Shown: piece by piece, positions 31,929 through 36,150 of the stretch | Layout: each line of letters begins with the position of its first letter | Position numbering within the stretch: position 1 is the stretch's first letter | Source: Microcystaceae cyanobacterium | Lineage (GTDB): Bacteria > Cyanobacteriota > Cyanobacteriia > Cyanobacteriales > Microcystaceae | Assembly (NCBI GenBank): GCA_040398185.1 | Contig: JBBAUO010000021.1 | Span: 1-63,518, forward strand | DNA length: 63,518 nt | Direction: 5' to 3' | Position numbers and translations under genes: made by a program | Notes under the pieces: model-generated | The model's database searches: none | The model's input: the letters and a program-made list of their open reading frames with translations, nothing else | Told to the model about the DNA's origin: nothing

Positions 31929-32645
31929 ATGATGAGTAAGCCTCTTTATCAAGAAAAACAACAGAAATTAGCAGAATTAATGCAAAATGCGGGGATTCAT
32001 ACCCTAGATGAACTCAGCGATCGCTCCGGGGTGTCTGCATGGCAACTGGCCAGGGTACAGCATGGACTTCTGAACAAAATGCCGACAGAAATTCTCCTGA
32101 AACTCTCCCAAGCCCTAGGGGTGTCTCCCAACGATATCCTGGGACAATTGCTACCTGAGGCAAATTTAGAGCCAAAAATCAGCCAAAAAGCCCAAATATA
32201 CTCGTCAGAGCCAGAGAATGAATCCCTAGAGGAGAGATTAGGTAAGGATCGGCAAATTATCGAGCAGGAATTTCAGCAATCTAGTCTCGAAGTCATTGAA
32301 TCTTGGATGTTACAATGGCCTACTGCTGTCGCCCTAGCCAAGAAAAACCCCGAACTATCTGCCGCAAAACTACTAACTTTGGTTAAACCCGTTATGGATT
32401 TGCTAAAACGATGGGGTGTTGAACCTCTTTGTCAGGTAGGGGAGCAAATTGCCTACGATCCTATGTACCATGAACTGATGGAAGGAGAAGCCAGCGTCGG
32501 GGACATAGTTTCGGTGCGCTATATTGGCTATACCCAAGGCTCTAAACTGCTCTATCGTGCTAAGGTTAGTGCCCTTCAATCCCCGGAAACTCCCGTCGTT
32601 GAAGAAGAGGCAAAAACCGATTTTTCCACTATTATCTACGGTTGA
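31929..32645 (+). CDS. HTH (XRE-like) domain fused to GrpE-like C-terminal domain
   Basis: N-terminus 'LDELSDRSGVSAWQLARVQHGLLNKMPTEILLKLSQALGVSPNDI' is an XRE-type HTH. C-terminus 'WGVEPLCQVGEQIAYDPMYHELMEGEASVGDIVSVRYIGYTQGSKLLYRAKVSA' matches the GrpE beta-domain pattern. Stop codon TGA overlaps the IS right-end 'TTGA'. Confidence 0.5.
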   Translation: MMSKPLYQEKQQKLAELMQNAGIHTLDELSDRSGVSAWQLARVQHGLLNKMPTEILLKLSQALGVSPNDILGQLLPEANLEPKISQKAQIYSSEPENESLEERLGKDRQIIEQEFQQSSLEVIESWMLQWPTAVALAKKNPELSAAKLLTLVKPVMDLLKRWGVEPLCQVGEQIAYDPMYHELMEGEASVGDIVSVRYIGYTQGSKLLYRAKVSALQSPETPVVEEEAKTDFSTIIYG

Positions 32646-32656
32646 CTCTCCCACGC

Positions 32657-33976
32657 CTAAAGGCATGGGATTCTTTCGGACAAGAATTTAGACTTAGGCA
32701 TTGCCCAAAGTTTGATTCTGCTTACGGTGGTCAAACACCGTCTACCCAGTCTACTTAAATCAATGTCTAAGTTTCTGGCTACCTTACGCAAAATATTCGC
32801 GGAACCGTTTAAATCTGAGTTGATAAAACTTCCAGCACTCGTTTTATACAAGCCCCTCTTTATTCTTTGTCCTGATGCTTTCCACCCTTGGGGCTTTTGG
32901 CCATATTCGGGTAGGGAGTCTTCATCAAGATAGGAAGCGCAAGAGGTATTAGCTTCTTCAGTTTGGACAAAACGAATATTATAGATAGAACACAATTGCT
33001 CAAGACGTACTTTCAGTTTTGCTAAAGGTATTTGAACGAATTGCTGATTATTCTTATCTCCCATGTTGACACCATCTTTGATGCCCTTATTCCACCCAAC
33101 TACGATTGTCCCAATCTCATATTTAAGGCAATGATTAATGACTATTCGCGCGGCTTTATTCACCATGTCACGCATCTGATGATTACGCTTTCTGGTAATT
33201 CCATCTAAAACCCTGTCCCAATAATCTTTAGGTTTACCTTCTTTACGTTGAGCAACTCGTTTGTTGTAAAGTTGATTCATCGCTTTGGCTTGACGAGAAT
33301 CAACTAAAAAGGAATTTCCCAAGGTATCAACACAAGCCATTAGATTTGCTGAAGTTCCTAAATCAATAGATAGAGCTTGTTCTGGAGCTAATTGAGGAGC
33401 TTCAACTTTCTCGATTTCATAGGCTAGAACCAAGTAAAATGCCCCATTTTTAGGCAGAATTGTCAATTCTTTGACCTTATCGAATTGAAGGTTAGCAGGG
33501 CAAGGCAGAAAGAACTCTTTAACACCAAACCAACGGCCTACCTGTAATCCTAGGGGAAATCTAATCATTCCTTCTCGGTAGGTCGGTTTACCAGCACCTG
33601 TATTCGGAAATGAGATTTTAAATAATCCACCTGATTTCCTATAGCTCGGTGGTAATGGTTTTTGCTCTAATTCTCCTTTTAAAAACAATTGGCGCAGTTC
33701 CCTGAAAGACTTAAACGCCTCGGAGACACTTAACAAAGTTTGTTGGGCGGTCACTGATGGTAAAGCCTGGGCATGAATATTTTTACCCACTTCATAGATT
33801 GGGTCATATTTGGAAATAATCCGATTGGTTTTGAAGAAGATTTGCCGCGCCCAATAGACTCCGCAGTTGTATAAACTATTTGATTGTTCCGTTAAGTAGG
33901 TCAGAATAGCTAGAGTCTCAGCATCACAATGAATCTGGTTTTGCTGAACTCCCATTAGACGACTTGCTTTTGTCAT
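32657..33976 (-). CDS. tnpB: RNA-guided endonuclease TnpB (IS605 OrfB family)
   Basis: OrfB_IS605 N-domain, RuvC-like motifs ('SIDLG', 'TSCASY' zinc finger 'C..C'), C-terminal 'SDLNGSANI'. Start set at ATG 33976 (MTKASRL), because the upstream extension in the ORF track is probably non-coding. Confidence 0.85.
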   Translation of the reverse strand: MTKASRLMGVQQNQIHCDAETLAILTYLTEQSNSLYNCGVYWARQIFFKTNRIISKYDPIYEVGKNIHAQALPSVTAQQTLLSVSEAFKSFRELRQLFLKGELEQKPLPPSYRKSGGLFKISFPNTGAGKPTYREGMIRFPLGLQVGRWFGVKEFFLPCPANLQFDKVKELTILPKNGAFYLVLAYEIEKVEAPQLAPEQALSIDLGTSANLMACVDTLGNSFLVDSRQAKAMNQLYNKRVAQRKEGKPKDYWDRVLDGITRKRNHQMRDMVNKAARIVINHCLKYEIGTIVVGWNKGIKDGVNMGDKNNQQFVQIPLAKLKVRLEQLCSIYNIRFVQTEEANTSCASYLDEDSLPEYGQKPQGWKASGQRIKRGLYKTSAGSFINSDLNGSANILRKVARNLDIDLSRLGRRCLTTVSRIKLWAMPKSKFLSERIPCL

Positions 33977-34031
33977 AGATTTTCCTCCTCTATCTATGTT
34001 ATCATATCTATAGATTTTAGCAATAGGTGGC

Positions 34032-34430
34032 ATGGGACAAAATTACTGGCACGAAAATACATCAGTCAGCCTCATCAACTATCACTTCGTTTGGATAGTC
34101 AGAAAACGGAAGAGAATACTATACGGGGAGATGGATGCTAGGGTTCAACAGCTAATTAGAGAAGCGGTTATTGCCTTAGAATGTGAAGTTATAGCCTTGG
34201 AAACAGATCAAGATCATGTTCATCTGTTCATACAATCTAAGCCAATCTATTCCCCTGCCCAAATCATGCACAATATTAAAGGCTCAGTTTCTCATCAAAT
34301 CAGGATTGAGTTCCCTTGGGTAAAAGAAAAGTTATCAAGTTTGTGGACGCGAAGCTATTTCTGTGGGACTACTGGAAGTGTTTCAGGAGATACTGTTAAG
34401 AGGTATATTGAAGCACAAAAAATTAAATAG
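34032..34430 (+). CDS. tnpA: IS200/IS605 family Y1 transposase TnpA
   Basis: 'NYHFVW', HuH motif 'DHVHLFI', catalytic Tyr region 'WTRSYFCGTTG'. 132 aa. Confidence 0.85.
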   Translation: MGQNYWHENTSVSLINYHFVWIVRKRKRILYGEMDARVQQLIREAVIALECEVIALETDQDHVHLFIQSKPIYSPAQIMHNIKGSVSHQIRIEFPWVKEKLSSLWTRSYFCGTTGSVSGDTVKRYIEAQKIK

Positions 34431-34479
34431 TTTGTTCGCTTTGCTCACCGCCTTATATCCCACGCTTAAAAGCATGGGT

Positions 34480-34703
34480 TTTACGGCGGTTTCTATAAAA
34501 TCGTACTGCTGTCTGGGAACATCATCTAAGGTTGCGGGAGTGGGATCAAAAAAGGTATTTCCGACCCAATCTCGCCCACCGACAAAAATCACTAGATCAT
34601 CTATTTCTGGCTCATAGGTAAATTCCGCCCTCGGCCTGTCTGGCCGCCCTTCCCTGGACTTTTGATGGGTCAAAAAAGCCGTTTTGATCAAATCTATAGT
34701 CAA
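34480..34703 (-). other. short ORF abutting/entering the IS left end (possibly a 3'-truncated gene)
   Basis: Reading frame from ATG 34703 runs straight into the IS hairpin. About the first 75 aa lie outside the IS and have no recognisable family. Confidence 0.3.
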
Positions 34704-34794
34704 ATTGAATATTAAAACCAGAATCCATTTATACAGCCCAACCGAGGCGATTTTAGCTCTAGGTGCAATGACTGAATTTTGGGGAATAGAGTTC

Positions 34795-36150
34795 CTAGCG
34801 TCTACGCCACCAGCTTATCCCCGCCAGGAGAAACCCTAATAAGGGAAAAACCACAATCGACAACCAAAACACCAAACTAGCCGTGAGGGGAGTTAAATTA
34901 ATCCTACGGTTTTTAGCTTCCCTAGGACGAATTGAGAGAGTTGGCGGCTCTTTGAGGGCTAACCATTGCACCGCATTGAGAAACACATCCCCATTTAGCT
35001 GCTGCTGAAAGAGGCCATCGGTGGCAAAGGTGGAATTACCAATGATCACTAATTTGTTCCCCCCAGTACGAGTTAAAGCCACACCTAAATCAAATGGACC
35101 AGGTAAATCCTTACTAGGATCAAAGGTTAATTCAGAATTGAACTCACTTTCGGCCCACATTTGTCCACTCGTTACCAACAGAGAAACCGCCTCAACTCCA
35201 GGAATAGGAACGGTAGCGATCGCCCGAGACACGGGAAAAACCGTAATGCCATTGGCAAAATCTTGGGTAATGGGATGTTGTCCATAGCTGGTAATTATCG
35301 GAGTTGCAGGACCTAAACCTAGGGCTTGACCTGCCCCGGAGCCATCTACGACAATACGATTATCTAACTTAACTCCCCAAGTCTTTAAAAGGGGATCTAA
35401 TCCTGCATCCACTTCTGGATCAATTAAAATCAGTAAATTCCCCCCTTTTTGTAGGTAATTTTCCAAAGCCGTAACTTCTTGGGGAAATAACTTACGTTTA
35501 GGTCCTGCTATGACAAGAGCATCTGTATCTTCAGGAACGACTGTTTTTTCGGCTAAGTTCCAAGGTTGTACCAGATAACCCTTATCTTCTAGGCTATTAA
35601 CGGCTTGTAGGAGTCCCCCCTGGGCAGATTTGAGAGGATATTCCCCATGGCCTTGTAAAAAATAAACCTTGGGAATTTGATTTCTTTGTAGGCTTTGCAT
35701 CCCGTCGGTTAACTGAGCTTCTGATAGGGATGTTCCTTCTTGAACAGTCCGAATCGGCTGCTTTTTGTCCTTAGTATCCAGATAAACCCGATAGAGTTTA
35801 CCCTGGGAAAGCTCTTTAAATTGTTGGGCTAATCCTGGGCTTTTATCTGGGTCTATGATTTGATAGGAGAAGTTTTGACTTTTTTCTTGATACTTTTGTA
35901 ATAGTTCCTCCTCGCTCAAGTTAGCATTGGCATCCCGTTGAAAAATCCAGACTTTAAGGGGAGCATTTAAACTTTTAAGCAGCTTTTGAGATTCTGGAGA
36001 TAGGGTAAATAATTGATTTTCCGTTAGATCAATACGTTGGGAATAGCGCAGTCCTAAAAAATTAATCAATCTGAACAGCACTAAAGCCACTAGGATCGCC
36101 AAGAGAGCATTAGTACCAACTTTAGTTGAACGTCGTTGCCAAAATTCCAT
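34795..36150 (-). CDS. GldG-like ABC-transporter auxiliary protein
   Basis: N- and C-terminal TM anchors flanking a large periplasmic domain. The 'ABC-type uncharacterized transport system' architecture. Confidence 0.65.
   Translation of the reverse strand: MEFWQRRSTKVGTNALLAILVALVLFRLINFLGLRYSQRIDLTENQLFTLSPESQKLLKSLNAPLKVWIFQRDANANLSEEELLQKYQEKSQNFSYQIIDPDKSPGLAQQFKELSQGKLYRVYLDTKDKKQPIRTVQEGTSLSEAQLTDGMQSLQRNQIPKVYFLQGHGEYPLKSAQGGLLQAVNSLEDKGYLVQPWNLAEKTVVPEDTDALVIAGPKRKLFPQEVTALENYLQKGGNLLILIDPEVDAGLDPLLKTWGVKLDNRIVVDGSGAGQALGLGPATPIITSYGQHPITQDFANGITVFPVSRAIATVPIPGVEAVSLLVTSGQMWAESEFNSELTFDPSKDLPGPFDLGVALTRTGGNKLVIIGNSTFATDGLFQQQLNGDVFLNAVQWLALKEPPTLSIRPREAKNRRINLTPLTASLVFWLSIVVFPLLGFLLAGISWWRRR

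Follow-up and report, generated by a model that had tools for sequence, protein, structure and literature searches.

Locus and boundaries of the element

The stretch of DNA analysed here, called the window below, comprises 63,518 nucleotides (nt) of contig JBBAUO010000021.1 from a Microcystaceae cyanobacterium (assembly GCA_040398185.1). It contains a complete insertion sequence (IS) of the IS200/IS605 family with an IS605-type layout. The element occupies positions 32642-34494 (1853 bp), and its top, or active, strand is the minus strand. Two divergent genes are encoded: tnpA at 34032-34430 on the plus strand, for an HUH/Y1 single-strand transposase of 132 aa (Pfam Y1_Tnp), and tnpB at 32657-33976 on the minus strand, for a protein of 439 aa (Pfam OrfB_IS605). 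The right end overlaps the last bases of a host gene at 31929-32645 on the plus strand, which encodes an Xre-type helix-turn-helix (HTH) protein of 238 aa (Pfam HTH_26, above threshold). It is very likely that this is an intact and ordinary cyanobacterial IS200/IS605 element, which landed silently on a stop codon and carries a predicted omega-RNA/TnpB system.

The boundaries were mapped by comparing empty and occupied sites. An exact look-up of the 238-aa host protein provided 10 metagenome contigs for this comparison. The element is at the same place in seven of them (L001, L002, and L004-L008) and absent from the other three (L003, L009, and L010). With a slash marking the junction, the plus strand reads ...tctacGG/ATAAaatcgtactg, that is, ...tctacgg/ataaaatcg, in the three empty sites. 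In the occupied sites it reads ...tctacGG/TTGACTCTCCC...GGCGGTTTCT/ATAAAatcgtactg, that is, ...tctacgg/TTGACTC...GGTTTCT/ataaaatcg. The reading along the top strand is 5'-...GATTTTAT/AGAAACCGCCGTAAAA-hairpin...GAAT-hairpin-AGAG-TCAA/CCGTAGATAATAGTGG.... These junctions show neither terminal inverted repeats nor a target-site duplication. Because the flanks and the IS ends have no bases in common, the boundaries are unambiguous and lie exactly at 32642 and 34494. The initial annotation had placed the TCAA right end at 32642-32645, which is correct to the base, and the left end at 34485, which is 9 nt off the actual end at 34494. Four contigs break 29-54 nt into the element, as is typical of repeated or polymorphic sequence.

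The stop codon of the host gene

Base 32642 and the stop codon TGA (32643-32645) of the host gene are IS bases. The junction mapping thus bears out the earlier proposal that the TGA within the plus-strand TTGA is an IS-supplied stop codon of the upstream HTH gene. The gene ends with TAC GGA TAA in the empty alleles and with TAC GGT TGA in the occupied ones, and both are translated as Tyr-Gly-stop. The insertion is translationally silent because the complement of the last four IS bases, TTGA, rebuilds the Gly codon and the stop codon. The 238-aa product is identical from occupied and empty alleles, and the exact-protein look-up found both alleles for this reason.

The host gene had been labelled HTH-GrpE-like. 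The HTH part of the label is supported by HTH_26, and the GrpE part is not, as its matches are below the thresholds (22.2 against 25.8 bits in Pfam and 18.6 against 184 bits in NCBIfam). Only the N-terminal Xre-type HTH is solid, and the label given by JGI is "DNA-binding Xre family transcriptional regulator".

Terminal hairpins, target site, and the IS608 code

A direct repeat of 24 nt (88% identity) is present at 32649-32672 and 34458-34481, and each copy is a hairpin. The pattern search for this hairpin gave two matches in the window, where 0.00 would be expected by chance. Together with the Pfam matches of the two divergent genes and the IS608-like ends, this confirmed the IS605-type element with matching end hairpins seen in the initial annotation.

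The right subterminal hairpin, IP_R, is located at 32650-32669 on the minus strand (CCCATGCC-TTTA-GGCGTGGG, with one G:T pair), and the tnpB stop codon TAG (32659-32657) spans its loop and stem. The left subterminal hairpin, IP_L, is located at 34459-34478 on the minus strand (CCCATGCT-TTTA-AGCGTGGG). Both copies pair better on the minus strand, where G:T replaces an A/C mismatch. The minus strand, which is also the strand of tnpB, is therefore assigned as the active, or top, strand. Directly 5' of the hairpin feet on this strand are two putative guide tetranucleotides, GAAT on the right (G_R, 32670-32673) and AAAA on the left (G_L, 34479-34482). The right-end cleavage tetranucleotide, C_R, is TCAA (32642-32645, minus strand), the last 4 nt of the IS according to the junction mapping. 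The target, which is also the predicted transposon-associated motif (TAM) of TnpB, is 5'-TTAT on the minus strand (ATAA on the plus strand) at 34495-34498. It belongs to the flanking DNA, outside the IS, and is present in the empty sites.

In IS608, the left cleavage site C_L is TTAC, outside the element and 19 nt from the hairpin foot, and G_L is AAAG; G_R is GAAT, and C_R is TCAA, inside the element and 10 nt from the foot (PMC3201880, PMC5934647). These cleavage sites are read via base contacts with the guide tetranucleotides (PMC3201880, PMC5934647). The window element has the identical G_R and C_R. It resembles IS608 also in the absence of terminal inverted repeats and target duplication, in the subterminal hairpins on one strand, in the left guide directly 5' of the hairpin foot, in the 4-nt, T-rich target outside the element, and in a TnpA of the same fold family (PDB 2a6m, 1e-22). 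On the other hand, the target and G_L are TTAT and AAAA here, in contrast to TTAC and AAAG in IS608, the distance from C_L to the foot is 16 nt instead of 19 nt, and C_R ends 8 nt instead of 10 nt after the foot. Guide and target are both changed at position 4 relative to IS608, as the rule predicts, presumably with the corresponding contacts. The host here is a cyanobacterium, and the gene layout, with tnpA divergent from tnpB, is that of IS605, unlike IS608.

IS605 of H. pylori shows the same gene arrangement, with tnpA antisense to the active strand and tnpB toward the right end. The targets of IS605 are TTTAA or TTAAC (PMC13565253), in contrast to TTAT here, and the likeness to IS605 rests on gene layout.

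IP_L is enclosed by an outer stem, in which ACCGCC at 34485-34490 pairs with GGCGGT at 34447-34452 (minus-strand letters). The putative G_L therefore sits in an internal loop. The closest three relatives (L011, L013, and L021) also have a left end reading TTAT/AGAA... and an outer stem around the hairpin, formed there by GAGAACCC and GGGTTCTC. The structure of this stem is kept; its sequence is not.

TnpA and TnpB proteins

TnpA looks intact from its sequence. It matches Pfam Y1_Tnp with an E-value of 1.9e-36 (125 bits against a cut-off of 23) and the NCBIfam equivalog transpos_IS200 with 128.8 bits (against 55). In the alignment with TnpA proteins of solved structure, including that of ISHp608 (PDB, 1e-22), the HUH motif (HVH), the ..KRYIE motif, and the C-terminal Tyr are conserved.

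TnpB likewise appears to be intact. It matches NCBIfam guided_TnpB over residues 13-398 with 139.9 bits (cut-off 100). The RuvC triad is invariant among the 20 sequences of the protein alignment (A3): D205 (SIDLG), E340/E341 (TEEA), and D388 (N(A/S)DLN). Homologues number 1335 at E <= 1e-10, and the relatives named by their source are labelled "RNA-guided endonuclease InsQ/TnpB family protein". Exact look-ups of the window TnpB, in its 439-aa and 458-aa versions, and of P0005 showed that they are not on record. In the Foldseek search with the AlphaFold model of TnpB, a model of low confidence, the PDB matches were all Cas12f or TnpB, with E-values down to 1e-14. Among the sequence searches of PDB, phmmer started from TnpB alone retrieved no solved structure at E <= 0.01, and only a profile yielded matches, which were weak and to Cas12f.

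The start codon of tnpB at 33976 is preceded by the Shine-Dalgarno sequence GAGGAGG. The start giving 458 aa was considered and rejected, as the homologues begin at the position of 33976, where GAGGAGG is found. The ATG of tnpA (34032) overlaps an upstream minus-strand ATG (34033-34031) in the tetranucleotide CATG. It is because of this overlap (34031-34034) that some gene callers give TnpB 458 aa.

TnpB is similar in fold to ISDra2 TnpB (8h1j and 8exa; Foldseek E-values 5e-12 and 6e-09). It differs from ISDra2 TnpB in having no C4 zinc finger and in its RuvC-III motif, N(A/S)DLN instead of DRDxN. Both features are shared by its clade. Between RuvC-II and RuvC-III (32958-32815 in the window), TSxAS(Y/F)LDGDSLP...GWKASGKR.KRGLY replaces the zinc finger. 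The catalytic D/E/D residues are kept.

The TnpB genome scan found 24 loci with 50-78% identity in diverse cyanobacteria, including Pseudanabaena, Tolypothrix, Calothrix, Stigonema, Rivularia, and Microcoleus. In 19 cases, the window and 18 relatives, the right end could be delimited. All 19 read (G/T)A(A/C)TC-hairpin-...TCAA, and G_R is GAAT in 17. A divergent tnpA or its remains is present at most of these loci, and L013 apparently has tnpB alone. The search for left ends in the relatives with the right-hairpin arm mostly failed, and a few left ends were found by their position next to tnpA.

Predicted omega-RNA and guide

An omega-RNA, or right-end element RNA (reRNA), is predicted to be encoded at the tnpB end of the element. 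The predicted scaffold is 141 nt long (32642-32782, minus strand) and covers the right end together with the final ~42 codons of tnpB. It would be followed by a 16-nt guide, 5'-CCGUAGAUAAUAGUGG, at 32626-32641 on the minus strand (to 32622 if the guide is 20 nt), a position given by the TnpB model. The initial annotation had put the guide directly downstream of the right end (minus strand), and this is where the TnpB/omega-RNA model would have it. The predicted guide is antisense to the last codons of the HTH gene. In the empty allele its sequence directly follows TTAT, and in the window it follows TCAA, which would be the expected self-avoidance.

The last 141 nt of the element were aligned with those of 16 relatives (alignment A2), and a structure of four helices was assessed on them. 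The helices were set by hand and tested by pair counts because RNAalifold alone missed helix 3. Paired cells amount to 85.9%, against 69.0% in shuffles, and compensatory changes are seen in 19 of the 26 pairs. The covariation score is 0.491, against 0.203; none of 500 shuffles reached the observed values, and controls with slid partners gave 0.04-0.14. The IP_R helix shows compensatory changes in seven of its nine pairs. The fold z-score of the scaffold is -2.57. These four covarying helices fit an omega-RNA scaffold. Searched with a covariance model of A2, the window contains no copy other than this one, and a scan for sigma-70 promoters and terminators gave nothing above shuffle expectation.

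Identity at third codon positions is 0.32-0.58 across tnpB and rises to 0.62 at 32776-32717; beyond this stretch, codon periodicity disappears. The constraint thus appears to switch from coding type to RNA type at about 32780. The tnpB stop codon is in the right-hairpin loop, and its position wanders in the relatives, for which reason the last ~40 codons of tnpB are considered to be mainly RNA-constrained.

The arrangement predicted here, with the scaffold in the tnpB 3' end and right end and the guide in the flank 3' of the right end, is like that of ISDra2. The TAM would correspond to the transposon target site, as in ISDra2, where it is TTGAT in contrast to TTAT here.

Copies at other sites and mobility

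The same TnpA protein, letter for letter, and the close variant P0139 also occur on other contigs, where the flanks are different. A TnpB with 97% identity (P0001) is encoded on another contig (L163), also with a different flank; the right end there reads ...GGGAGAGTCAA and is followed by unrelated sequence. Eight distinct insertion sites are observed in total: the window, L156, L157/L169, L160, L161, L162, L163/L165, and L168. TTAT on the top strand (ATAA on the plus strand) abuts the left end at all eight, and the next base varies. The initial annotation had described a single IS copy. Within the window this holds in both the pattern search and the covariance-model search, while near-identical copies are present at at least seven other sites in lake metagenomes. 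Its suggestion that the element may still be mobile agrees with the occupation of the site in seven contigs and not in three, and with the eight TTAT sites; the element is probably active. The presence/absence polymorphism is observed at ~99-100% flank identity. Such polymorphism with near-identical flanks, together with contigs that break 29-54 nt into the IS, is taken as evidence of recent activity, as far as sequences can tell.

The IS alleles at this same site (window against L001, L002, and L004) differ at 27 of 1853 positions, and their flanks differ at ~6 of 5458. The IS differences are blockwise and alternately match the L163 copy (e.g., 33029-33065 versus 33095-33212). This mosaic points to gene conversion, and the suggestion is that it took place among IS copies. 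One copy, seen in three samples (L166, L167, and L171), ends inside the left hairpin, ...TATATCCCACG/TTATGTCG..., ~30-35 nt past the tnpA stop codon and beside a DUF6262 gene. This copy is probably immobilised.

Alternative explanations

Two alternatives concern the insertion itself. According to the initial annotation, the native C-terminus of the host gene was replaced by the insertion, that is, swapped for IS-derived sequence and a stop codon. The stop codon, together with one base of the last sense codon, does consist of IS DNA. However, the related sequences without the IS (L003, L009, and L010) have the same gene end and encode exactly the same 238 residues, with GGA TAA in place of GGT TGA, so that the C-terminus is identical; nearly all members of the 90% cluster of the host protein are also 238 aa long. 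An altered host protein is thereby refuted, by the condition that the initial annotation had itself set. It is also improbable that the element is a fixed relic, no longer mobile, with the polymorphism coming from different species or from assembly artefacts. The single copy in the window, the origin of the sequence from a metagenome-assembled contig, and the 27 of 1853 differing bases would agree with such a relic, but both open reading frames (ORFs) and both ends are intact, the empty and occupied alleles have flanks that are 99-100% identical, and the same IS with an identical TnpA protein is found at eight different TTAT sites.

Several points weigh against the reading as an intact element with an omega-RNA/TnpB system. 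The empty alleles could be precise excisions, not never-occupied sites, in which case the boundaries would be unaffected. The omega-RNA is predicted from the model, as are its 5' end and the length of the guide, and Rfam 15 at E <= 1 gave no matching family in 32000-35000. The terminal helix is ambiguous, since it is also the TnpA hairpin and its covariation could be explained by the recognition of single-stranded DNA. TnpB is assigned to the guided nuclease family by sequence, and its nuclease activity is predicted. A C4 zinc finger is usual, though not universal, in TnpB proteins, and none of the 20 aligned sequences of the clade has Cys pairs for it within residues 341-388. The AlphaFold model has a low confidence, with a predicted local distance difference test (pLDDT) value of 57.8 from a shallow alignment of 20 sequences, and in the zinc-finger-equivalent region, at ~30, it is uninformative. 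It could be argued that the conserved structure near the end of tnpB and in the right end serves TnpA alone, as a signal in single-stranded DNA, and that a TnpB without a zinc finger is a non-nuclease accessory or regulatory protein. The terminal hairpin is indeed the TnpA binding site in IS608 (PMC3201880), and the absence of the zinc finger from the whole clade and of an Rfam match would fit. Three more covarying helices, however, are located 85-140 nt from the end. IS608 TnpA worked with right-end oligonucleotides of 45-56 nt, among which RE45 has nothing 5' of G_R (PMC3201880), and the three upstream helices argue for RNA because they are beyond this range. Against a non-nuclease TnpB, the RuvC D/E/D triad is invariant, the protein passes guided_TnpB end to end, and a loss of the zinc finger has been described in some large TnpB branches regarded as active (PMC10691335). 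The single-stranded DNA signal with a non-nuclease TnpB is therefore considered unlikely, and an omega-RNA scaffold with a guided TnpB is preferred.

Proposed mechanism

By analogy with IS608, TnpA would bind both subterminal hairpins on single-stranded DNA. The 4 nt located 5' of each hairpin would choose the cleavage sites: AAAA, which is AAAG-like, with TTAT on the left, and GAAT with TCAA on the right. TnpA would then excise a single-stranded circle and re-insert it 3' of another TTAT (peel-and-paste). The predicted products of excision are a donor joint ...TACGG/ATAAAATCG and a right end-left end circle junction ...GTCAA/AGAAACC.

For TnpB, the omega-RNA model is reportedly that of Karvelis 2021 and Meers 2023. 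In this model, transcription of the tnpB 3' end and the right end would yield the structured scaffold of ~141 nt and would continue into ~16 nt of the flank. With this RNA bound, TnpB would cleave the allele that is empty or resealed, TTAT-CCGTAGATAATAGTGG, and the element would be restored through recombination with a chromosome copy that is occupied. The occupied allele would be safe from TnpB because TCAA, not TTAT, precedes the match.

Hairpins shared with other IS200/IS605 elements

A scan of metagenome DNA with the shared hairpin pattern found 80 loci (L035-L114), which are other, mostly non-cyanobacterial IS200/IS605 ends. No further copy of the window IS is among them. The 21-nt hairpin CCCATGCYTTTARGCGTGGGA is letter-identical in many left and right ends of IS200/IS605 elements from unrelated sediment and groundwater metagenomes. 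The right ends are of the type gagaat-hairpin-gtgtcaa, and the left ends of the type TTTCAT-aaaatcgtaggctggata-hairpin-ggaaagccg. In these loci the hairpin recognized by TnpA is conserved to a much greater extent than the proteins are.

Landing on stop codons of convergent genes

In three of the 19 right-end flanks, an IS-donated TGA is the exact end of a long convergent ORF: the window, L017 (right end at 2844), and L023 (right end at 1093). The same ending is seen in L060 and L074, two of nine unrelated TCAA-ended elements from the metagenome scan. A donated TGA is thus found in 5/28 independent TCAA-ended insertions, against 0 and 1 long ORFs in the remaining two frames. The reconstructed empty site of L017 has an in-frame AAA TAA. 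No such stop codon is found among 11 TCAG-ended elements.

As a baseline, ATAA sites were counted in the window with the IS removed. Three of 783 are stop codons of long ORFs in register, or three of the 103 located outside long ORFs (~3%). When the window is left out, the ratio of 4/27 against ~3% suggests enrichment, with small samples and a rough baseline. The geometry follows from the IS608 code. The target is TTAN (complement NTAA) and the tip is TCAA (complement TTGA), so that a split of NN/N-TAA results in an in-frame NNT-TGA. It is rather doubtful that elements with the IS608 end code are pre-adapted for harmless landing on the TAA stop codons of convergent genes.

Implications

Beyond these mapped details, the biology of the element is that of a textbook, well-known kind. 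For annotation, the locus indicates that a stop codon can be mobile-element DNA without any change in the protein, and that a replaced C-terminus should not be inferred without an empty site. The element is also a natural illustration of the guide-tetranucleotide rule of IS608, in which both partners are changed, from AAAG and TTAC to AAAA and TTAT. It is a cleanly mapped natural TnpB element, with exact ends, the TAM TTAT, a predicted 141-nt scaffold with covariation, and a predicted 16-nt guide. The TnpB clade is widespread in cyanobacteria and has no zinc finger, and it could be tried as a compact editor. If the enrichment of stop-codon landings is real, the end code could have been selected for this "safe-harbour" property, which would then not be a by-product.

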